Shown here one piece after another: positions 521 to 27,279 of a stretch of DNA of 27,845 nucleotides. Within the stretch, counting starts at the first letter, position 1; every line of letters starts with the position of its first letter. A model generated the notes under the pieces. The model was given only the letters and a program-made list of their open reading frames with translations. It was not told the DNA's origin and did no database searches. Both the position numbers and the translations under genes were made by a program. The stretch is from a virus (taxonomy: Duplodnaviria > Heunggongvirae > Uroviricota > Caudoviricetes): the IMG/VR virus record IMGVR_UViG_2802429221_000019, positions 1 to 27,845 of that record; one strand, given 5' to 3'.

Positions 521-993
521 GTATTTGTATTTTGTTAAATGGCGGTAAAGTGGCGATGGTGTGGCGATATGCAGAAATAATGATAGTACACGTCTGTTTA
601 AACTCTAAGGGTGAAGCAAAACTCTCCTGCAACTCATCTGCATTTCGCATATTGAACTAGGGCCTTGGTTAAACCAAAGTTTTTTCTGGGATCTTCCCAC
701 TCAACTTCATTTTTCCTCCTACCATCCACCAAAAGGTGTCTGCGCTACTCTATCTTTTTTAATCTGACAACATCCTGAGAAAAAGACAAATTCGTTAGAT
801 TTACTGTCTTTCTGCTGCCTCGAATGCTGATGTCTGCAGCACTGATAATAACTCTATCTCTTTGATATAGATCTTTTTTTTGATGAATTGCACGGCATAT
901 TATCGTGATGGCACCTTCTTGTTAAAGGTGTTGTACTCCTCATCTCGATTTTATGATGTGGGCTATGATTGGTTAGTAATAGAGTGTATCGGT

Positions 994-1275
994 ATGCGAT
1001 GTGGTTTATTAATGGCAATCTGCCTTTGTTTGGTATCTTTTAGTGGGTATGCAGCAACAGGAAAGTCAGATGCTCAGATCAAGAAAGAAATAATTAAAGA
1101 ATCCATTGAATCTTATCCAGGCAATTGTGCGTGTCCGTATAATCATGCAAGGAATGGTAGTAGATGTGGTGGACGCAGTGCATATAGCCGTACTGGAGGG
1201 TATGACGTGGTATGTTATGAAAGTGATGTTACCGATGAAATGATCCGGCAATGGAAGCAGGAGAATGCTGAGTAA
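994..1275 (+). CDS. small secreted Cys-rich protein of unknown function (signal peptide MRCGLLMAICLCLVSFSGYA; motif CxCPY...RCGGRSA)
   Basis: ORF-track frame 880..1275; start at 994 preferred because it begins a typical signal peptide, and the 38 residues upstream are non-hydrophobic. Lies in an AT-rich islet. Family not identified with certainty. Confidence 0.5.
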   Translation: MRCGLLMAICLCLVSFSGYAATGKSDAQIKKEIIKESIESYPGNCACPYNHARNGSRCGGRSAYSRTGGYDVVCYESDVTDEMIRQWKQENAE

Positions 1276-1340: not shown

Positions 1341-1378
1341 TCCAAAAAGAAACCCCGCAGTTTTTACGCTGCGGGGTT
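1341..1378 (-). terminator. intrinsic terminator (minus-strand sense) downstream of the hok-like gene
   Basis: perfect 10-bp stem AACCCCGCAG / CTGCGGGGTT (1351-1360 / 1369-1378) with 8-nt loop; on the minus strand it is followed by TCTTTTTGG. Confidence 0.5.
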
Positions 1379-1464
1379 GTTATTCATGCCTATGAGATAG
1401 GGTGCCTTATCGGCCTTACCCTAGCAACCGATTGACGGGGAGTTGCCTCCCCGTCGCGGTTTCC

Positions 1465-1605
1465 TTACTGCTTACACTGTAAGAACGCCGCAAACTCCGC
1501 TCCCCAGAAGCTCATCCGTATTTCACACAGCGAACCGTGCAGCATCCAGATGATGAGGATTACCGTCACGCAGAACGTGATGGCCGTAAGCGATTTTTGC
1601 GACAT
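1465..1605 (-). CDS. Hok/Gef-family-like type I toxin (46 aa: MSQKSLTAITFCVTVILIIWMLHGSLCEIRMSFWGAEFAAFLQCKQ)
   Basis: Translated by hand (below ORF-track length cutoff). N-terminal TM helix followed by SLCEIR and G.E.AAF, which resemble the Hok signature (..SLCEIR..G..EVAAF..). Strong SD AAGGAG 8 nt upstream, enclosed in an inverted repeat (AGCGC..CTCC..GGAG..GCGCT). Confidence 0.55.
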   Translation of the reverse strand: MSQKSLTAITFCVTVILIIWMLHGSLCEIRMSFWGAEFAAFLQCKQ

Positions 1606-1756
1606 AGCGCTTGCTCCTTTGTTGGAGAGGCGCTAACCTATCACTTGCTAGGTTGACGGGTTAGGGCCTCGGTTAAACAGAAATGTTTTCCGGGGCCTTT
1701 CCACATCCGGCCTTCGGGTATTCCCTCCGACCATCAGCCGAAAGGCACCCGCACGT

Positions 1757-1785
1757 AATCTATCGCTTTTTTGTTACTCCGGCAA
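1757..1785 (-). promoter_or_regulatory. candidate sigma70 promoter for the hok-like transcript
   Basis: minus-strand TTGCCG (1785-1780), 17-nt spacer, TAGATT (1762-1757); would give a leader of about 145 nt, as expected for hok-type mRNAs. Confidence 0.4.
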
Positions 1786-1794
1786 TTCTGCCTG

Positions 1795-2055
1795 TTAATT
1801 CTGAGGTAAAGGCAAACTCATCTGATTGTTTCCCCTGTGTGAAGCTGGCAGCTCATGCCACGGGATACCTTCTGATGAGTGAACGCCGGAGGCGTGTTTC
1901 GATGTGAATTTATGGAAAGCTTCCAGTGTTGAGAAGCATACGCCGCATTCCAGGTTGTTACACTGGTAATACTTTTGCCGCACGGTGTTTGAATCATTTT
2001 CCGGACGACTGGTGCGGATACGGGCAGATGCGCCACAAAGCGGACAACGGAACAT
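1795..2055 (-). CDS. ogr: Ogr/Delta-family zinc-finger late-gene transcription activator
   Basis: N-terminus MFRCPLCGASARIRTSR...YYQCNNLECGVCFS with CxxC...CxxxxC zinc finger as in P2 Ogr; SD AAGGAGG 5 nt upstream; immediately follows D as in P2. Confidence 0.85.
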   Translation of the reverse strand: MFRCPLCGASARIRTSRPENDSNTVRQKYYQCNNLECGVCFSTLEAFHKFTSKHASGVHSSEGIPWHELPASHRGNNQMSLPLPQN

Positions 2056-2097: not shown

Positions 2098-3207
2098 TCA
2101 CTCTGTTTCCGCTATCCATTCCGGGATTTTTGCCTCAAGCTCAAGCTGCGTGGTAAAGCCGCTGTTATCAATGGTGTGCTCGGCTTTTGCAATAATCCAG
2201 TCCTGATTATCAATCTCGCTTTTAAATCCTGTTACCGTGCCATGCATTTCGGGGTAGAGTTCTGCTCGTCCACGTGCCAGCGTGATGGAGAATGATGCGG
2301 CTCCGCGTTGTAGTTGTTGCCACTTTGCCGCCGCTGCGCGTCTTGCTGCCTGCTCGTTCTGATAAGTCTTGCGTAACACAAACACATTGCCTTCCGCGCC
2401 TTCCATATAATCACCTTCACGGCTGCTGCTTTTCTCTTTTTTCGGTTTTGGCGGTTTGCGGCGTTTCACGCTGACTTTTTTCTTTTTCCCGTAATTAAGA
2501 TCAAGCCAGTAAGCGCGTACCCCCGTATACGCCTCGCGGTCAGCAATGCGGAACTGATGGCGATCGCCGCTGCTGCGGGTGATGGAGAACGATGGCAACG
2601 GCTGGCCCTGTGCGTTCACGCCACCGCCGGGCATGATGAATAACAGATTACCGCTTTTTACCGTGGTGATTGCGCCCAGCATTTCCGCCATGCGCGTAAG
2701 GAAGGACATGTCGCTTTCTTCAGTCTGGTCGGCGTGGTCGATTTCGATATCCATCAGCATTTCGCTGATTTGCGGTTTCAGACCGTACCGATGAGCGATG
2801 GCGGATACCACGCGCTCAACGGTCACATCATGCCAGGACACTTCACGTTTAACGTTAAATTCATCCCGAAAATCTGCGCTTCTGGCTGAAACAGTCAGCC
2901 TGTCCGGCGGTCCTTCGTGTGCGATTTCATCAACAATGTAAGACCCTTTTTCTGTCAGCGGTTCGCCTTTCCAGCCAATGAGAACCGTCAGGCACGCGCC
3001 CCGTGGTGGAAGCTGCAACTGACCATCCGCATCATCCAGCGTAATGGTGAGCTGGTCTGCCTCAAATCCCCGGTTGTCGGTCAGCGACAGGCTCATCAGG
3101 CGCTCTGCCACGCCGGACAGCGTTTTACCCTCCGCGAGAATATCAAAATCCGGCATTTTCACGGGGTCTGTGCTCTGACTGAGCAATTGCATGGTGGTAT
3201 CGGTCAT
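2098..3207 (-). CDS. D: tail protein D (late control D family)
   Basis: ORF-track frame 2098..3339; start chosen at ATG 3207 (MTDTTMQLL...) with SD GGGAGGGAG upstream. P2 gpD-like in size and sequence; contains a Lys-rich insertion KKKKVSVKRRKPPKPKKEK. Confidence 0.85.
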   Translation of the reverse strand: MTDTTMQLLSQSTDPVKMPDFDILAEGKTLSGVAERLMSLSLTDNRGFEADQLTITLDDADGQLQLPPRGACLTVLIGWKGEPLTEKGSYIVDEIAHEGPPDRLTVSARSADFRDEFNVKREVSWHDVTVERVVSAIAHRYGLKPQISEMLMDIEIDHADQTEESDMSFLTRMAEMLGAITTVKSGNLLFIMPGGGVNAQGQPLPSFSITRSSGDRHQFRIADREAYTGVRAYWLDLNYGKKKKVSVKRRKPPKPKKEKSSSREGDYMEGAEGNVFVLRKTYQNEQAARRAAAAKWQQLQRGAASFSITLARGRAELYPEMHGTVTGFKSEIDNQDWIIAKAEHTIDNSGFTTQLELEAKIPEWIAETE

Positions 3208-3364
3208 CTGCTCCCTCCCTGTGCGGCATGGTCGCATGTGTGTGCGGGCGGGGTTACTGCTTTTTGTTGTCGCCGGGCGGCAAGAACGGCGCAGGGGTGA
3301 GATTACGCGCGTGGTGGGTGATGATTGTTGCCGAATCATTTAACGGATACAAGGGGCTGAAGCT

Positions 3365-20616: not shown

Positions 20617-22368
20617 ATGATTCAGGACGCTTTTGTGCGCCAGCGTGCGCGACAACTTTACTGGCAGGGTTATCCGCCCGCTGAAATATCACGTCTGATG
20701 GGAATAAACCCGAACACGATTTATGCGTGGAAAAAACGCGACCAGTGGGATGAAACGCCACCCGTGCAGCGTGTCACGCAGTCCATCGATGCGCGCCTCA
20801 TCCAGCTTACTGAAAAACAGAATAAAACAGGCGGTGACTTTAAGGAAATAGACCTGCTGACCCGGCAGCTTAAAAAACTGCATGATGGCCAGCCGGATGC
20901 GACGGCCACAGGAAAGAAAGGCCGGGCGAAAAAGCTTAAAAATCATTTCACGCCGGAACAGATTGCCGCACTGCGGGAAAAAATCATCAGCAGGCTGGAG
21001 TGGCATCAGCGGGGCTGGTTTGACTCCCTGACCCTTTGCAGGGAAGCCGGGATACGTAACAGGATGATCCTGAAATCCCGACAGATTGGGGCGACCTGGT
21101 ATTTTGCACAGGAAGCACTGCTGATGGCGCTGCGTGACGATGTGGCGCAACCTTACCAGCGTAACCAGATTTTTTTGTCTGCGTCGCGTCGTCAGGCGTT
21201 CCAGTTTAAAAGCATTATTCAGAAGGCTGCATCTGAAGTTGATGTGGAGCTGAAAGGGGGCGATAAAATCATCCTCTCCAACGGCGCAGAACTGCATTTT
21301 CTCGGTACTTCTGCTGCGACGGCACAGTCCTACACAGGCAATTTTTATTTTGATGAATTTTTCTGGGTCAGTCGCTTTGCTGAACTGCGCAAGGTGGCTG
21401 GCGCTATGGCAACCCTCAGCGGGCTGCGACGCACCTACTTCTCCACGCCATCAACCGAAACGCACGAGGCATACGTCTACTGGAACGGCGACCGCTGGAA
21501 CGAGAAAAAGGCCGCGCATAAACGCCAGCGTTTTTCTGTGGACTGGAAAACGCTGCATAACGGGCTTATCTGCCCCGACCGGACGTGGCGGCAAATTGTC
21601 ACGCTGGAAGATGTGGTTAATCACGGCTGGAAACACACCGATATTGATGAAATTCGTGATGAAAACACCGAAGACGAGTTCCGCAATCTCTATATGTGTG
21701 AGTTTGTCCGCGAAGGGGAATCGGCATTTAACCTGAATATCCTGATTGGCTGCGGCGTTGACGGATACGACGACTGGAAAGACTGGAAACCTTTTGCTCC
21801 CCGCCCGATGGGGAATCGTCCGGTATGGATTGGGTATGACGCAAACGGCAGCAGTGGAAACGGCGACAGTGGCGCGGTGTCCGTGGTGGTTCCTCCGGCT
21901 GTTCCTGGTGGCCGTTTTCGAACGGTGGAGACGCGACGCGTTCAGGGGCTGGAGTTTGAAGAACAGGCCAGAGTCATTGAAGAGTTCACGTGTCGCTACA
22001 ACGTGGAACACATCGGCATTGATGTGACGGGCGGGAACGGGGAGGCTGTTTATCAGATAGTGAAACGGTTTTTCCCTGCCGCTATTCCGTACACCTTCAC
22101 GCTGTCATCAAAACGGTCGCTGGTACTGAAAATGCTGCAAATAATGCGTGCCGGGCGGTGGGAATACGATCGCGCCGAACGCGAGCTGGTCGCGGCCTTT
22201 AACGCCGTGCGTAAGGTGAAAACACCGGGCGGCTTTATCACTTACGAAACGGACCGCGCGAGGGGGATCAGCCACGGCGACCTTGCGTGGGCAACCATGC
22301 TTGCTGTCATTAACGAACCAATTGGCGGCGAAGGAGAAAACGAGCGTTTCACGGTTATGGAGTTCTGA
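20617..22368 (+). CDS. P: terminase large (ATPase) subunit
   Basis: 583 aa; SD GGGGGAG upstream; divergent from O as in P2. Confidence 0.9.
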   Translation: MIQDAFVRQRARQLYWQGYPPAEISRLMGINPNTIYAWKKRDQWDETPPVQRVTQSIDARLIQLTEKQNKTGGDFKEIDLLTRQLKKLHDGQPDATATGKKGRAKKLKNHFTPEQIAALREKIISRLEWHQRGWFDSLTLCREAGIRNRMILKSRQIGATWYFAQEALLMALRDDVAQPYQRNQIFLSASRRQAFQFKSIIQKAASEVDVELKGGDKIILSNGAELHFLGTSAATAQSYTGNFYFDEFFWVSRFAELRKVAGAMATLSGLRRTYFSTPSTETHEAYVYWNGDRWNEKKAAHKRQRFSVDWKTLHNGLICPDRTWRQIVTLEDVVNHGWKHTDIDEIRDENTEDEFRNLYMCEFVREGESAFNLNILIGCGVDGYDDWKDWKPFAPRPMGNRPVWIGYDANGSSGNGDSGAVSVVVPPAVPGGRFRTVETRRVQGLEFEEQARVIEEFTCRYNVEHIGIDVTGGNGEAVYQIVKRFFPAAIPYTFTLSSKRSLVLKMLQIMRAGRWEYDRAERELVAAFNAVRKVKTPGGFITYETDRARGISHGDLAWATMLAVINEPIGGEGENERFTVMEF

Positions 22369-23414
22369 TGAGCAGAAAAAATAAAAAAGTGCGCATGAGT
22401 TCACGCATTGATCTCGCTGATGCGCTCAGGAAAGAATCGTCGCTCAGTGCATTCACATTTGATGGTCCTTACCGCCTGACCGGGCATGACCTGCTGGACA
22501 ATATGTACTGTGCTGATAACGGGCGATGGTATGAAACCCCGGTGGACTGGTACGGTCTGGCAAGAGCTGCCCGGCAAACGTCCTGGCATCAGTCTGCGCT
22601 TTACTTTAAGCGTAATGTATTGCTCGGCTGCTATATTCCGCATCCGCTGCTTTCCCGGCAGGATTTCTCGGCGCTGGCGCTGGACTGGTTTGTGTTCGGT
22701 AACGCATTCCTTGAGCTTCGAAGCAATATGCTCGGCGAACCGCTTAAATTACGGCACGCCCTGGCGAAATACATGCGACGCGGAAGCGATCTTGAATCAT
22801 GGTGGTATGTGCAGGATGGCAAGGACGCGTTTCAGTTTCGCCCTGGCAAAGTGTGCCACCTGATGAACCCGGATATTAACCAGGAAATCTACGGCATGCC
22901 GGAATATCTTGGCGCATTACTCTCGGCCAGCCTGTCTCATTCGGCGGACATGTTCAGAAAACTGTACTACGACAATGGATCCCACGCCGGGTGCATCATC
23001 TACATCGGTGCAGCGCAGGTAAACCGCGAAAGCATGGACTCCCTGAAGGAAACGCTACAGGGTGCGCGTGGTGGTGGTGCATTTAAAAACGTGCTCATTC
23101 ACGCGCCAAACGGGGGCAAAGAAGGTGTGCAAATTTTGCCGTTCCAGCAGATCACCGCAAAGGATGAGTTCATGAATGTTAAGGCGGCATCCCGTGATGA
23201 TGTGCTGGCTGCGCACCGCGTTCCGCCGCAACTGATGGGGGCGATGCCGGGCGAAAAAAGTGCGTTTGGTGATGTGGAGAAGGCAGCGCGGGTTTACGCA
23301 ATTAACGAGCTGATGCCCGTCATGGAGGCCATGAAGCACATCAATGACTGGCTTGGCGAAGAGGTGATCCGTTTTAATTCTTATGCTCTTCTTGATGAAA
23401 AAACAGCCCCGTGA
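22368..23414 (+). CDS. Q: portal protein
   Basis: 348 aa; ATG overlaps P stop (TGATG); P2 gpQ-like size and position. Confidence 0.9.
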   Translation: MSRKNKKVRMSSRIDLADALRKESSLSAFTFDGPYRLTGHDLLDNMYCADNGRWYETPVDWYGLARAARQTSWHQSALYFKRNVLLGCYIPHPLLSRQDFSALALDWFVFGNAFLELRSNMLGEPLKLRHALAKYMRRGSDLESWWYVQDGKDAFQFRPGKVCHLMNPDINQEIYGMPEYLGALLSASLSHSADMFRKLYYDNGSHAGCIIYIGAAQVNRESMDSLKETLQGARGGGAFKNVLIHAPNGGKEGVQILPFQQITAKDEFMNVKAASRDDVLAAHRVPPQLMGAMPGEKSAFGDVEKAARVYAINELMPVMEAMKHINDWLGEEVIRFNSYALLDEKTAP

Positions 23415-24718: not shown

Positions 24719-26416
24719 TTATTTATCCTCTTTAATGATTTTGTTATAGTCAAAATCCCAAATTTTTCTGTCAATGCCGTTTGTTGGTGTAACCCGGTAG
24801 AATAAGGATCGTAATCCATTGTAAAAATACTGGAGAGATTTCTGATTTTCTGGTTTGTCTAACCAGTTTCTTGTAATCATTCTAAAGAATTCAATATGCT
24901 GATTGAATATTTTCTTATTTAATTTTCTTCTTAAACCGGATGTAGACTCATGGTTGTCTTTTCTTTTCTGAATTTCAGTTTCAATTGATTGTAATTGAGG
25001 ACGTATCTTGAGTAAGTATAACTCTTTCGAAAAACCATTGTTAATTATATCCTGATTTTCCCAGAAGGAAGAGTCGTCGGTATTATAAAGGTGCTCACAA
25101 TGCTCAAATATCAATTGTTCTGGAGCTTTTTCACCCGGCAGTGATATAATTCCTCTCTGATCCTCAGGGCTGTGATCTCCATCAAGAATACAAATTGATT
25201 TTAACGAGGTTTCCTTAAGATGAGAATCATTAAAAATAGTTTTTAAATTGTCTGCACCAATGAAACAATCAATTAAGTGAAATGAATTACTAACTATAGC
25301 AAAATTTGGATATTTGCTTATCCAATAACCAAGTATTTCATTAAATAAAAAGCGAGCTTCTTCATCTTCCGTGAAAACTGGTATCTTGTTCCTTGTGTAT
25401 ATCTCATCCTTTGTTTGTGTTTTCAGATACATTGTTATTTTTAATATATCAGGATTATCCAAAAGCAGAGCCTTTGTAATATTGTTAATTAGATAGGCAA
25501 CATGATATTTTTTATGAAAAGCATATTCTAGCAATGTCAGACTGTGCGTTGTGAAAAATACTTGAATCTTATAATCTTTTGCGTATTGATAAATTTTATC
25601 TAATAATCTTATCTGTAAAGAAGGATGTAAAGTGGCATCAAATTCATCTATTAACAGAATGCTTTCTTTTTGATCAGTGGATTGAATAAGTGATTCAAAA
25701 TAATACCTAAGGCTAACTAATGCCTTGATTATAACGAATATATTGTCTTCCCCGGATGATATGGTATTAGAATCAATTGCTGGGTTATCGGTATCAAATA
25801 ATGGGCCAGCTTTAAAATCTCCGATATTGTTTGATTCTATATTTATAATATTAATGCCCAAAAGTTCATTATATATTTTCGATATATAACCAACATACTC
25901 TTCTGGTAGGTTTAACGGAATTTTTGTAAGGGCGTCGTCTTTAGTTTCACCAATTGGGAATAGTCGCGATAATCCAAGATATAAAACTGGTTTAGCTGGA
26001 AGTGATTGTTTTTCTTTTCCGCGTGGGTATACTGGTTTGATAGCATACCGTTGCGCTTCGTCTGGATTTTTTGAGTTGTGCTTTCTGAAGTCTAGTGTGC
26101 TATGATCCAAATAGTTAATAGAAAATAACACACCTTTTGTTCCCTCTGCCGGATCGGTGTAATTTTTTGATTCCCTAACAATTGCTTCCATTTTGGGGTT
26201 GGCTATTTTGTTTATAGATTTTATAACTCTAACACAATTACTATTTGAATAATTTTGTGATCGAGATGGTGGCATTTGGAAACCATTGCTAATTAAATGA
26301 AGCAATGTTGTCTTACATGTCCCATTGGTTCCTGATATTATATTGATGTCTTCATTGAATGAGAAGTCAATATCTATCAGTTTCTTAAATTTTTTAAAAC
26401 TAATTTCTTTAATCAT
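24719..26416 (-). CDS. OLD-family-like ABC ATPase with C-terminal Toprim-like nuclease domain
   Basis: 565 aa; Walker A GTNGTCKTT (aa 29-37), signature-like ISSGE (aa ~219-223), Walker B ILLIDE (aa 253-258), H-loop FFTTHS (aa ~287-292); C-terminal PVFTEDEE (Glu ~350) and ILDGDHS (DxD 412-414) fit a Toprim fold; SD AAGGA 8 nt upstream; very AT-rich. Confidence 0.7.
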   Translation of the reverse strand: MIKEISFKKFKKLIDIDFSFNEDINIISGTNGTCKTTLLHLISNGFQMPPSRSQNYSNSNCVRVIKSINKIANPKMEAIVRESKNYTDPAEGTKGVLFSINYLDHSTLDFRKHNSKNPDEAQRYAIKPVYPRGKEKQSLPAKPVLYLGLSRLFPIGETKDDALTKIPLNLPEEYVGYISKIYNELLGINIINIESNNIGDFKAGPLFDTDNPAIDSNTISSGEDNIFVIIKALVSLRYYFESLIQSTDQKESILLIDEFDATLHPSLQIRLLDKIYQYAKDYKIQVFFTTHSLTLLEYAFHKKYHVAYLINNITKALLLDNPDILKITMYLKTQTKDEIYTRNKIPVFTEDEEARFLFNEILGYWISKYPNFAIVSNSFHLIDCFIGADNLKTIFNDSHLKETSLKSICILDGDHSPEDQRGIISLPGEKAPEQLIFEHCEHLYNTDDSSFWENQDIINNGFSKELYLLKIRPQLQSIETEIQKRKDNHESTSGLRRKLNKKIFNQHIEFFRMITRNWLDKPENQKSLQYFYNGLRSLFYRVTPTNGIDRKIWDFDYNKIIKEDK

Positions 26417-26433
26417 CTATATCATCCTTAAAT

Positions 26434-27279
26434 TTAAATGTCAGGGATTTTTATACCATGATTATAAATGATAATTTCTAGACCTTTTTTCTTATCTTGT
26501 GCAGTATAATTAAGCGTATAATCAGTCATATTGAATTCATGATATATGCTTTTTATTTCAGGCACATTGTCATAAGACACAACCCAAGGTAGTTGAATTT
26601 CCCGTAGTGTATTAGCGATTTTTACATGATCATCATGTTTATAAAAATTTCTATATAACTCTGCTCCTTTAACATAATAAGGTGGATCAAGATATATTAG
26701 ACTATTTTGGGGTAGCAATGCTTTTTGGTGTAGCAGAAAATCTACAGCATCAAAATTCGATACGTAAATTTTCTCCTTATATGCCCCAATTAGTTCAATC
26801 CTTTTAATTAACTCTTTTTTGTTGAATCGTGCATCTAACTTCCATGGTCCTTTTTGTTCTTTCCCTCCAATAACGCCAGCCTTAAGTATTCCTGAACGGT
26901 TTGTTCTATTTAAAAAGAAAGTAGATAATGCGACTTCAAGCATACTATATTTATCATTGTTTAGGAGTATCTCCTTTTGAGTATGCCAATTTTCAATAGT
27001 CACAGGAACTTCATCAATCATTTCACATAACAGATCGTTATGATTAACCACTGCAAACCAAAAAGAATAAAGGGCAGGATCAATATCATTTATGAAGATA
27101 TTTTCAACAAGACCGTTAAGGAGCAAACCTAATGCAACACCGGCTCCACCTGCATAAGGTTCAGCATAACATCCACCAATGAGATCATTGTTGCGGAGTA
27201 TTTGTTCAATATGTGGCAAGAATTTTGCCTTACCTCCCGGATAACGAAGAGGGGTTCTAAAATGAGAAGGCTTTGTCAT
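26434..27279 (-). CDS. Dam-family (D12 class) N6-adenine DNA methyltransferase
   Basis: 281 aa; motifs YPGGK (aa 13-17), EPYAGGAGV (aa 40-48, SAM-binding FxGxG type), DPPY (aa 198-201); 17-nt gap to the downstream OLD-like gene. Confidence 0.85.
   Translation of the reverse strand: MTKPSHFRTPLRYPGGKAKFLPHIEQILRNNDLIGGCYAEPYAGGAGVALGLLLNGLVENIFINDIDPALYSFWFAVVNHNDLLCEMIDEVPVTIENWHTQKEILLNNDKYSMLEVALSTFFLNRTNRSGILKAGVIGGKEQKGPWKLDARFNKKELIKRIELIGAYKEKIYVSNFDAVDFLLHQKALLPQNSLIYLDPPYYVKGAELYRNFYKHDDHVKIANTLREIQLPWVVSYDNVPEIKSIYHEFNMTDYTLNYTAQDKKKGLEIIIYNHGIKIPDI

Follow-up and report, generated by a model that had tools for sequence, protein, structure and literature searches.

The window, that is, the whole 27,845-nucleotide stretch of viral DNA analysed here, very probably carries a complete hok/sok-type type I toxin–antitoxin cassette in the 1344–1785 region, with the predicted hok mRNA on the minus strand and Sok on the plus strand. 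Just as probably, a P88-like (P2 family) prophage that lies next to the E. coli tRNA cluster glyW-cysT-leuZ carries it as accessory cargo at its ogr end. The locus is already known: RefSeq and phage records annotate the gene, the cluster of its peptide is catalogued, a near-identical peptide has been described as toxic and a related prophage hok/sok has been characterised, which leaves little discovery value and removes the novelty implied by a preliminary description of this DNA. What does separate the 46-amino-acid Hok subfamily to which it belongs from both plasmid R1 hok/sok and hokW is the lack of a conserved mok start codon.

The Hok peptide

The hok coding sequence (1465..1605, minus strand; 46 amino acids and a stop codon) encodes MSQKSLTAITFCVTVILIIWMLHGSLCEIRMSFWGAEFAAFLQCKQ, a product containing SLCEIR and GAEFAAF. 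The preliminary description had recognised this 46-codon frame as Hok-like from SLCEIR and a G.E.AAF pattern and had proposed a search against Hok/Gef family models, which bore the reading out. The peptide passes Pfam HOK_GEF (PF01848) with 30.1 bits against a cutoff of 22 (E 3.7e-7, profile positions 5–42 of 42), and residues 1–46 match PHROG 251, 'MokW-like host killing' (E 2.5e-23, 82.8 bits). It falls under the cutoffs of two NCBIfam models, NF007279 'type I toxin-antitoxin system Hok family toxin' (23.6 versus 73 bits) and the HokA model NF007290 (35.8 versus 89 bits), in a run that gave R1 Hok 126 bits. The ORF carries the generic RefSeq name 'Hok/Gef family protein' (WP_000078920.1) because these NCBIfam Hok cutoffs are missed. 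The RefSeq entry also qualifies the earlier remark that the ORF track had missed the gene, which is true of the track but reflects only the small size of the ORF. No PADLOC model matches the peptide.

The ORF is intact, and the C-terminal half of Hok is nearly invariant between E. coli, Salmonella, Klebsiella and Citrobacter. Among the supplement entries examined from the study of Escalera-Maurer et al. (bioRxiv 10.1101/2025.08.07.668861), the window peptide does not occur in its exact form, and the nearest entry is one residue off. This entry, 72_1621 (45/46 residues identical), was one of the homologues tested, is not listed as non-toxic and is reported in this 2026 preprint to be toxic when over-expressed. 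Judged from these family matches, the 46-amino-acid product is a real Hok-family membrane toxin, its toxicity being assigned by analogy with the near-identical 72_1621 under over-expression.

The carrier and distribution of the cassette

Homology to K-12 stops at about position 522 of the window, and the hok cassette lies inside the inserted element. The hok promoter starts 10 nt past the ogr stop codon, the terminator scan predicts no terminator between the two, and ogr is directly upstream in 79 of the 80 IMG/VR loci with a near-identical Hok. Downstream of the hok terminator, the window continues with a phrog_27544 ORF and then the leuZ junction. The position right after ogr in P88-like prophages represents a further cargo site in P2-family genomes, beside the known hotspot. 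As a separate observation, that known hotspot holds a probable PD-Lambda-5 defence pair in the window.

A 501-bp stretch is shared identically with many E. coli genomes, and 1549 of 5426 complete E. coli genomes carry the hok cassette. The unit of about 410 bp moves intact, being found in P2-like phages, Stx phages, a relaxase-bearing (plasmid-like) contig and chromosomal sites. The IMG/VR scan gave near-identical copies only, and the diversity used below came from genome contig searches and individual homologue look-ups. An alignment of 24 homologues was used, and a set of 15 diverse homologues (61–98% Hok identity) served for RNA structure.

The predicted hok promoter and mRNA

Fold, homology and terminator together predict a full-length hok mRNA of about 409 nt (1344..1752, minus strand), close to the 400 nt typical of hok mRNAs that had been proposed. 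Its 5' end was set through homology with the hokW and R1 mRNAs and through position 1 of the Rfam model, which falls at 1750; the 3' end was set by the terminator. The leader, from the predicted transcription start near 1750–1752 to the ATG at 1605, is about 147 nt long, against an earlier estimate of about 145. The full-length RNA has a minimum free energy of −182.7 kcal/mol (z −7.0), and 0 of 100 shuffles were as stable. Three stem-loops 3' of the hok start region, noticed in the preliminary description, can be placed at 1485–1462, 1455–1434 and 1395–1384, and are followed by an intrinsic terminator found in the terminator scan (1344..1378, minus strand; inverted repeat I4) with a 10-bp stem (1378–1351) and the U tract that had also been noted.

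The hok promoter, as read from the sequence on the minus strand, consists of a −35 TTGCCG (1780..1785) 17 nt upstream of a −10 TAGATT (1757..1762). The hexamers and spacing given in the preliminary description stand, but the label 'near-consensus' does not: a hand count matches the sigma-70 consensus at 8/12 positions, and a consensus scan of both strands over 1250–1900, which required at least 9/12, returned no promoter. The −35 hexamer is not conserved among homologues, whereas the −10 is TAGATT, TAGAAT or TAGAGT in 14 of the 16 homologues aligned across the site, and its position relative to the GGGUGC 5' end equals that of TAGAAT in 933W hokW. Because the consensus scan found none, the predicted hok promoter and the sok promoter described below are called on homology and conservation and not on consensus strength.

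Rfam RF01794 aligns over its whole model length to the leader on the hok-sense strand (E 1e-8 to 1e-9), with a score of 47.3 bits that misses the gathering score of 59. All tested members of the 46-amino-acid subfamily score 38–53 bits, while hokW reaches 113.5 and an R1-like hok 87.2 in the same orientation. The other Rfam matches (e.g., BSnc120, ClpQY_promoter and Thr_leader) are weak matches to the terminator hairpin, far under their gathering scores, and were rejected.

Conserved and alternative RNA structures

RNA folding, a check suggested at the outset for the leader, predicts a Shine-Dalgarno hairpin, a target hairpin and pairings of the 5' element, and the full-length structure is 88.7% paired in the 15 homologues, compared with 40–45% when partners are slid. 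In the full-length fold a tac-like 5' element, GGGUGCCUUUCGGCU (1736..1750, minus strand), pairs with an fbi-like 3' element, GGCCGAUAAGGCACCC (1400..1415, minus strand), an end pairing that fits the proposed likeness to hok mRNAs. This helix has 15 bp in the minimum free energy fold, including an exact 9-nt complement of 1742–1750 with 1400–1408, and is 94.4% paired across the 15 homologues with 4 compensatory pairs. The 5' element has an alternative, ucb-like partner, GAAAGGCCCC (1692..1701, minus strand; inverted repeat I8), with 1740–1749 and 1692–1701 forming a 10-nt complement at 90%. The tac/ucb-like pairing is present in the leader-only and 3'-trimmed folds, and its helix is 94% paired in homologues; alignment columns 12–13 covary with both 363–364 (the 3' partner) and 52–53 (the internal partner).

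A similar choice is predicted around the hok Shine-Dalgarno sequence. The Sok-target hairpin (1627..1670, minus strand; inverted repeat I1, the consensus hairpin of RF01794) exposes a loop of 10 nt that is complementary to the 5' end of Sok and is seen in the leader-only and trimmed folds, with 87.6% pairing in the 15 homologues and 4 pairs changed on both sides. In the full-length fold, a hairpin at 1605..1635 (minus strand) sequesters the hok Shine-Dalgarno, AAGGAG (1619–1614), in its 3' arm, in keeping with the inverted repeat that had been described as enclosing it; its 11 bp (1635–1624 with 1617–1605) are 90.9% paired in the 15 homologues. The two hairpins are mutually exclusive because the Shine-Dalgarno hairpin (5' arm) and the target hairpin (3' arm) share bases. 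The 3'-UTR contributes an arm (1420..1432, minus strand; inverted repeat I2) that pairs with the Sok-recognition loop region 1652–1640 in the full-length mRNA, and this helix 6 (1432–1420 with 1652–1640) is 88.8% paired with 5/12 pairs changed on both sides. Next to it, a G+C-rich hairpin (1434..1455, minus strand), formed by the perfect 9-bp repeat I7, shows 99.2% pairing and 5 compensatory pairs among homologues and might act as a barrier to 3' exonucleolytic trimming. The compensatory changes fall in two clades, of 6 and 9 sequences, and given this split they may represent few evolutionary events.

The energy needed to open the hok translation start was computed as 15.0 kcal/mol in the full-length RNA, 10.6 when the RNA is trimmed to the 3'-UTR hairpin and 16.6 when the stretch complementary to Sok is kept single-stranded as a proxy for bound Sok, so that the predicted activation on trimming is only about 4 kcal/mol. 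The start codon is paired with a segment of the coding sequence (1603–1589 with 1501–1487) in all predicted states. The mean unpaired probability of the Shine-Dalgarno, 0.33–0.36 in every state, was dropped as a measure in favour of the opening energy, in which the difference is itself modest.

A predicted Sok-like antisense gene

By homology to the characterised sokW, a predicted Sok-like antisense gene with a conserved promoter is present on the plus strand. No Sok-like promoter had been confidently identified in the preliminary description, and comparison with sokW supplies one: a −35 TTGCTC (1611..1616, plus strand), which is the counterpart by homology of the sokW TTGCCT, precedes by 17 nt a −10 TAACCT (1634..1639, plus strand) that agrees with the sokW −10 both in sequence and in homologous position. 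In all 15 homologues the −35 is TTGCTC, TTGCCT or TTTACT with the same 17-nt spacing, and the −10 is TAACCT or TATCCT (15/15). The annotated sokW 5' end in 933W is 7 nt downstream of its TAACCT, and primer YO-421 alters TAACCT in the sokW promoter-less construct, in which antitoxin activity was lost (PMC8621323).

The predicted Sok-like RNA is about 57 nt long (1646..1702, plus strand), with both ends predicted from fold and homology. Its fold (−22.8 kcal/mol, z −2.6) would consist of a free 12-nt 5' tail and a long hairpin with UUUCC after it, with only 3 U past the hairpin, and this architecture matches the annotated SokW. Across the 15 homologues the predicted Sok RNAs are 55–60 nt long; their hairpin is conserved, and the part 5' of it varies. 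The Sok RNA and mRNA elements of the 46-amino-acid subfamily carry no annotation in the records examined and the subfamily RNA scores under the Rfam gathering threshold; automated pipelines therefore report a lone toxin without an antitoxin. A Pfam match above gathering, an RF01794 match below it, covarying RNA pairings and this Sok-like gene together uphold the original assignment to a Hok/Gef-like type I toxin locus.

Proposed control of hok without a conserved mok

In the window, no ORF beginning with ATG, GTG or TTG extends across the hok start, and no leader ORF is conserved across the 15 homologues; the same analysis recovers a mok-type ORF in hokW and in the R1-like locus. The GAGG element is kept in the window with no start codon after it. 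The +2 frame was considered as a mok and rejected, as it is stop-free over the hok start in 15/15 homologues but has no conserved start codon, and its upstream part (about 16 codons) is estimated to be stop-free by chance nearly half the time. Also rejected was the notion that mok is constantly out of frame with hok in the family: it is in frame in 933W and in the R1-like plasmid, while coordinates in PMC9841398 imply that it is out of frame in R1 proper. In R1, mok starts at +116 and hok translation requires mok translation, with only translation reaching the hok Shine-Dalgarno, and not the Mok product, being of importance (PMC9841398).

A tentative but possible reading is that the widespread 46-amino-acid Hok subfamily (cluster 72) represents a hok/sok variant that naturally lacks mok and in which the GAGG 'mok SD' is purely structural and Sok acts via a three-way RNA switch. 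In such a switch the target and Shine-Dalgarno hairpins would compete for about 1635–1627, and Sok binding would return these bases to the Shine-Dalgarno hairpin. If this is true, a large natural branch of the family can do without mok coupling, which is regarded as essential under the R1 paradigm, and the absence of a conserved mok makes the subfamily a natural test of the need for such coupling in hok control.

Instead of being mok-less, hok could be coupled to a 21-codon leader ORF (1641..1706, minus strand) whose AUG lies at mRNA +47 and which might, with some uncertainty, stand in for mok. Sok, pairing from 4 nt downstream of the AUG (1706), would block its translation, whereas ribosomes ending at the stop (1641) would melt the 5' arm of the Shine-Dalgarno hairpin (1635–1624) and let hok initiate. 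Of the 80 E. coli-type loci, 77 retain this AUG, with ORFs of 10 to 24 codons or running into hok; they usually stop 13–40 nt from the hok Shine-Dalgarno, 3 leader variants extend into hok in the style of a classical mok, and the E. albertii ORF (79 codons) overlaps hok. The R1 precedent, in which translation up to the hok Shine-Dalgarno suffices and the Mok product is irrelevant (PMC9841398), also speaks for this coupling. The AUG is, however, absent from the Salmonella, Klebsiella and Citrobacter members, where all RNA elements are kept, the stop position varies widely (the Stx-phage copy ends 40 nt upstream of the Shine-Dalgarno) and the only Shine-Dalgarno-like sequence of the ORF, an AAGG 4 nt ahead of it, is taken up by pairing within the predicted 5' hairpin. 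Coupling to this leader ORF is held to be unlikely.

With hok switched by RNA structure, the following course can be proposed. In the computed full-length RNA, the 5' end (1750–1736) is clamped to the 3' end (1415–1400), pairing with the 3' UTR occupies the Sok-recognition loop and the hok Shine-Dalgarno is buried. By analogy with R1 hok/sok and hokW-sokW, slow 3' trimming would remove the end clamp, with refolding predicted once the RNA is trimmed to 1455–1434; the freed 5' end would then re-pair with 1701–1692 and the target hairpin (1670–1627) would form. Since that hairpin shares bases with the Shine-Dalgarno hairpin, its formation would open the hok ribosome-binding site. On the same analogy, the short-lived Sok of about 57 nt, made from the plus strand, would bind the target hairpin via its free 5' tail, bringing duplex cleavage and re-closure of the Shine-Dalgarno, and cells no longer making Sok would produce Hok and lose membrane integrity. 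In contrast to R1 and hokW, no conserved mok frame links Sok to hok here; the switch probably acts directly on the hok Shine-Dalgarno, which is the least certain step.

Biological role

Most chromosomal hok loci of E. coli K-12 are no longer expressed or regulated, and the window cassette could likewise be an inert relic, a hok homologue without mok that is unexpressed or unregulated and is a passive passenger of the prophage. The lack of a canonical mok, the missed Rfam and NCBIfam cutoffs and the weak consensus matches of both promoters would fit such a relic, as would the remark in bioRxiv 10.1101/2025.08.07.668861 that chromosomal Hok homologues may be inactive. The rest of the evidence makes it very improbable: the ORF is intact with a C-terminal half nearly invariant between E. 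coli and three other genera, the RNA helices are maintained by compensatory changes, the Sok promoter hexamers and spacing are retained in 15/15 homologues, the cassette of about 410 bp is mobile as an intact unit between P2-like phages, Stx phages, the plasmid-like contig and chromosomal sites, and it is present in 1549/5426 complete E. coli genomes. The near-identical 72_1621 is, moreover, reported as toxic in that preprint.

Should the cassette be functional, prophage addiction, put forward in the preliminary description together with abortive infection, is not the only role to be considered. To our knowledge, hokW-sokW of Sp5 is the only prophage hok/sok studied. It is reported to assist lysis and phage release on induction: when it was deleted, mitomycin C treatment released half as much Sp5, and SokW vanished on induction (PMC8621323). 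The same paper cites inhibition of T4 by hok/sok, and the window cassette might thus aid lysis and release as in Sp5, or exclude other phages as R1 does T4. The hok promoter follows ogr, the late-gene activator, after 10 nt, and because no terminator is predicted between them, late read-through from ogr into hok is possible. Against this, the sequence does not discriminate between addiction, a lysis aid and phage exclusion, PADLOC offers no matching model for the peptide and hok is reported in bioRxiv 10.1101/2025.08.07.668861 not to be enriched near defence systems. A role other than prophage addiction is given a little under an even chance.

Relation to known systems

The same gene occurs in the same place, directly after ogr, as P88 gp52 and Chuche CDS0012 ('MokW-like host killing'; Xuanwuvirus, Peduoviridae), with 94–96% DNA identity to the window over the cassette. 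The similarity ends at or just before the hok terminator, past which Chuche has com, a methyltransferase and int, whereas the window has the phrog_27544 ORF and the leuZ junction; the P88 and Chuche records have no Sok RNA annotated. Of the cluster 72 representatives in bioRxiv 10.1101/2025.08.07.668861, 72_1621 differs by one residue from the window peptide and is identical to the Chuche peptide, which occupies the same gene position as P88 gp52, and 72_1589 has 45/46 residues in common with the Stx phage Lyz12581Vzw peptide. Both entries belong to a 'high abundance cluster' and were tested, and neither is listed as non-toxic. That study covered coding sequences only and by its own statement did not analyse Sok, Mok or mRNA structure, so that the RNA anatomy given here is absent from it.

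Plasmid R1 hok/sok (parB), the paradigm of the family, shares with the window the tac/fbi end pairing, the alternative tac/ucb pairing and a target hairpin built from a GAGG-containing segment and a downstream box. Its Sok, of about 60 nt, resembles the predicted antisense RNA, and its Hok has SLCEIR and AAF in common with the window peptide, with 39% BLASTP identity over 31 amino acids. R1 differs in being a plasmid and not a prophage, and in needing mok (start at +116) for hok (PMC9841398), where the window keeps GAGG with no start codon after it.

A second close system, hokW-sokW of the Stx2 prophage Sp5 and of 933W (AF125520, which annotates sokW, mokW and hokW), is a validated type I toxin–antitoxin system (PMC8621323). 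HokW has 51 amino acids and belongs to another peptide cluster, hokW has an in-frame 70-codon mokW starting inside the SokW-complementary region that has no equivalent in the window, and its Rfam score is 113.5 bits versus 47.3. The window leader is about 24 nt shorter than that of hokW, the window sok −35 overlaps the hok Shine-Dalgarno and the window phage is P2-like whereas the hokW phage is lambdoid. Yet both systems are prophage-borne and encode Pfam HOK_GEF peptides, both mRNAs begin with GCGGGUGC, for which a 3' GCACCC element provides the complement, both sok genes have a −10 TAACCT 17 nt from a TTGC-type −35, and SokW and the predicted Sok of the window each consist of a free 5' tail and one long hairpin.

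The hok Locus and Its Transcript

The minus-strand ORF at 1605..1465, proposed in the preliminary description to encode a Hok/Gef-like peptide, is present, and its translation, read from the sequence, is MSQKSLTAITFCVTVILIIWMLHGSLCEIRMSFWGAEFAAFLQCKQ. Upstream of it are an Ogr/Delta zinc-finger gene (2055..1795, minus strand; Pfam 52.4 bits), 190 nt away, and the gpD tail gene (2098-3339, minus strand; longest ORF 413 aa); a tRNA-Gly/Cys/Leu cluster (152-453) lies at a distance of about 1 kb. The 413-aa gpD ORF has an arginine/proline-rich N-terminal extension that is apparently not genuine, and RefSeq carries at its position only an 801-nt 'VgrG/Pvc8 family' CDS and a partial pseudogene.

The hok promoter hexamers, TTGCCG (1785-1780, minus strand) and TAGATT (1762-1757, minus strand), stand 17 nt apart as described, but calling them near-consensus was an overstatement: counted by hand, the pair makes 8 of 12 matches to the sigma-70 consensus, and a sigma-70 consensus scan of the hok region found no promoter. 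A terminator scan located the claimed terminator with its U tract at 1378-1351 (minus strand), and the transcript, put earlier at about 400 nt, is computed to run from ~1752 to ~1344, or 409 nt. Folding of this RNA gave an MFE of -182.7 kcal/mol (z -7.0 vs dinucleotide shuffles). Promoter strength apart, the anatomy is confirmed.

The search against family models proposed at the same time bore out the Hok/Gef resemblance. The peptide scores above the Pfam HOK_GEF cutoff (30.1 bits vs 22; E 3.7e-7), matches PHROG 251 'MokW-like host killing' (E 2.5e-23) and aligns by BLASTP with R1 Hok at 39% identity over 31 residues, SLCEIR and AAF included. It does not reach the NCBIfam cutoffs for the Hok family (23.6 vs 73) or HokA (35.8 vs 89), and so represents a divergent branch. 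A protein search returned 68 relatives, mostly of exactly 46 aa, from E. coli, Shigella, Salmonella and Klebsiella oxytoca, with every named one a Hok/Gef family protein; G24, C27, E28 and most of the C-terminal A36-K45 (AEFAAFLQCK) are invariant among homologues.

Distribution and Genomic Context

The locus is a real feature, correctly interpreted in the preliminary description and already known. Copies 100% identical to the 501 bp at 1300-1800 occur in many E. coli chromosomes, O103:H2 and O45:H2 strains among them, and this stretch or a relative is found in 1549 of 5426 complete E. coli genomes; the RefSeq name of the ORF is 'Hok/Gef family protein' (WP_000078920.1). The cassette also stands after ogr, at 94-96% identity, in the Escherichia phages P88, Chuche, 500465-2, PhiR44_2 and Xuanwuvirus P884B11 and in a Citrobacter phage; several of these records label its gene 'MokW-like host killing'. 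Stx2a phages carry an 83%-identical copy in another context. The placement next to ogr, recognized from the outset, is seen in the window and recurs in 79 of 80 IMG/VR loci with near-identical Hok, where Ogr is directly upstream. Homology to the K-12 core chromosome stops near 522, ~70 nt past tRNA-Leu, which places the cassette inside an inserted element.

The stretch from ~522 to hok is part of the island and holds an ORF (880-1275, plus strand) matching phrog_27544 (labelled 'unknown function'; E 3e-59); in strain 2011C-4251 an IS3 element lies between this ORF and the tRNA. Two contigs with Gram-positive labels, from a Planococcaceae MAG (L005) and a Vagococcus sp. (L006), encode a Hok 100% identical to that of the window, with Ogr at 74% and 100% identity, respectively; enterobacterial contamination or mis-binning is the most likely origin of both. 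At the far end of the window, a D12-class adenine methyltransferase (281 aa, 26434-27279, minus strand; PADLOC PD-Lambda-5_B, E 9e-122) adjoins an AAA_15/OLD-like ATPase (565 aa, 24719-26416, minus strand; phrog_3940, E 1e-135). This gene pair (24719-27279) is probably a PD-Lambda-5 anti-phage pair, with no match to the A-component model among the 25 matches listed, and it sits after the portal gene (22368-23414), in a cargo hotspot known from P2 genomes.

Predicted Alternative Structures of the hok mRNA

Rfam RF01794 ('sok') matches the window at 1750-1595 on the minus strand with 47.3 bits (E ~1e-8 to 1e-9), below its gathering score of 59. On the validated hokW locus (113.5 bits) and an R1-like hok locus (87.2 bits), its match covers the hok-sense strand between the 5' end of the mRNA and the hok ATG, so the model describes the hok leader containing the sok complement. 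Other 46-aa subfamily members score 38-53 bits, which leaves the subfamily with no annotated RNA feature.

Structure was assessed by consensus folding and explicit pair counts, with partners slid 1-3 columns as the control, in an alignment of 15 diverse subfamily mRNAs (Hok identity 61-98%) from P2-like phages, Stx phages, a relaxase-bearing (plasmid-like) contig and chromosomal sites of E. albertii, Salmonella, K. oxytoca and C. braakii. Conservation extends over the entire ~360 nt between the 5' end and the 3' element. Pairing in the full-length structure is 88.7%, vs 40-45% with slid partners, and 28 pairs have both members changed. The helix joining the two ends (1750-1736 with 1415-1400) reaches 94.4% and has four compensatory pairs, and a second long-range helix, joining the future Sok-recognition loop (1652-1640) to the 3' UTR (1432-1420), has five, but as the compensatory changes separate two clades (6 vs 9 sequences), the independent events may be few. 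An alternative local structure, in which the 5' element pairs with 1701-1692 beside a target hairpin at 1670-1627, is 88.2% paired. Changes in alignment columns 12-13 are matched in the 3' partner and in the internal one alike, the coupled covariation expected of a single element alternating between two partners. The complements in the window were confirmed by a plain repeat search.

A Predicted Antisense Sok Gene

No Sok-like promoter had been identified with confidence in the preliminary description, yet a candidate is present, homologous in position to the sokW promoter. On the plus strand, TTGCTC (1611-1616) is followed after 17 nt by TAACCT (1634-1639), and the predicted Sok RNA would start at 1646-1647 and end near 1702 with a hairpin and UUUCC. 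In the 933W annotation, the sokW 5' end falls 7 nt downstream of TAACCT, itself 17 nt from TTGCCT, and primer YO-421, used for a promoter-less sokW construct, alters exactly TAACCT (PMC8621323). All 15 homologues have TTGCTC, TTGCCT or TTTACT exactly 17 nt from TAACCT or TATCCT, and the RNA predicted for each is 55-60 nt long, its hairpin conserved and its 5' part variable. The 57-nt window Sok is predicted to fold (-22.8 kcal/mol, z -2.6) into one long hairpin preceded by a free 5' tail of 12 nt, whose sequence complements the target-hairpin loop of 10 nt. As far as sequence evidence goes, a Sok gene is present.

The most variable part of the cassette is the Sok 5' tail and target loop (window 1640-1660; columns ~95-118 of homologue alignment A2), with indels even among E. 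coli copies with 98-100% identical Hok and 28 distinct leaders in 80 loci; such variability could keep copies that reside together from responding to one another's Sok. Up to 7 matches to the cassette occur in some genomes. Two Salmonella enterica loci (L092, 1352-2205; L093, 1353-2205) carry two complete subfamily cassettes in tandem, ~490 bp apart, each with its own promoter, tac/fbi elements and terminator, and the predicted Sok 5' tails differ between the copies. Another S. enterica locus (L100, 1021-1992) belongs to a different P2-like prophage (gpD, Ogr) at ihfA-pheT, with a hok cassette directly after ogr, a Hok only 61% identical to that of the window and the enterobacterial sRNA STnc540 (Rfam RF02082, 171.6 bits) immediately after it on the opposite strand.

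Control of hok Translation

In R1, translation of mok up to the hok SD is needed (PMC9841398). The window keeps a conserved GAGG element, the counterpart of the mok SD, with no start codon found after it, and no ATG, GTG or TTG ORF was found overlapping the hok start. Judged from these sequences, mok is apparently absent from a large natural branch of the family. In IncFII plasmid pMTY1886 (L103, 440-660), whose Hok is identical to R1 Hok, a mok-like ORF is in frame with hok, as is mokW of 933W, whereas the R1 coordinates (mok AUG 116-118, hok AUG 174-176) put mok out of frame (PMC9841398); the frame of mok is thus not constant even among close relatives.

A leader ORF starting at the AUG at mRNA +47 (window 1706) might serve instead as the coupling device. 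This AUG is retained by 77 of 80 E. coli-type loci, and the ORF that it opens either has 10 to 24 codons or continues into hok. The Salmonella-type clade lacks the AUG; no conserved leader ORF was found across the 15 homologues. The explanation favoured here is hairpin competition: the target hairpin, in its 3' arm, and the SD hairpin, in its 5' arm, share bases ~1635-1627, so that forming one would melt the other. Opening the hok start is predicted to cost 15.0 kcal/mol in the full-length RNA, 10.6 in RNA trimmed to the 3'-UTR hairpin and 16.6 with the Sok-complementary stretch held unpaired as a proxy for bound Sok, values that fit competition in direction, with a modest effect. The hok start codon is paired to a downstream CDS segment in all predicted states.

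Toxicity and Biological Role

[quoted passage not shown] In a 2026 preprint with a catalogue of 1264 Hok peptides, hok was enriched in prophages, and of 45 representatives assayed only 19_179, 60_1482 and 69_1540 were non-toxic; Sok, Mok and mRNA structure lay outside its analysis (bioRxiv 10.1101/2025.08.07.668861). Its Table S2 lists, both in a 'high abundance cluster', 72_1621 (MSQKSLTAITFCVTAILIIW...), one residue different from the window Hok, and 72_1589, which shares 45 of 46 residues with the Stx-phage (Lyz12581Vzw) peptide (bioRxiv 10.1101/2025.08.07.668861). As both were tested and neither is among the non-toxic three, over-expression toxicity has already been reported for cluster 72.

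The cassette may act in prophage addiction, in lysis assistance on induction or in exclusion of other phages, roles that sequence cannot separate. Lysis assistance is reported for hokW-sokW, deletion of which halves phage release after mitomycin C (PMC8621323), and exclusion for R1 hok/sok against T4 (as cited in PMC8621323). The hok promoter begins 10 nt past the ogr stop with no terminator predicted between them, which makes late-infection read-through conceivable.

Comparison with Known hok/sok Systems

Two points keep some interest: a predicted Sok RNA that lacks annotation, and the apparent absence of mok across so large a natural branch. In R1 and hokW the mok frame starts inside the Sok target, and the window has none such. 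The predicted window Sok has the shape of SokW, a free tail and a long hairpin, and the predicted mRNA pairings match the scheme of R1 hok/sok, with tac/fbi formed between the 5' and 3' ends of the full-length RNA, and the internal tac/ucb pairing and target hairpin in the truncated RNA (PMC9841398).
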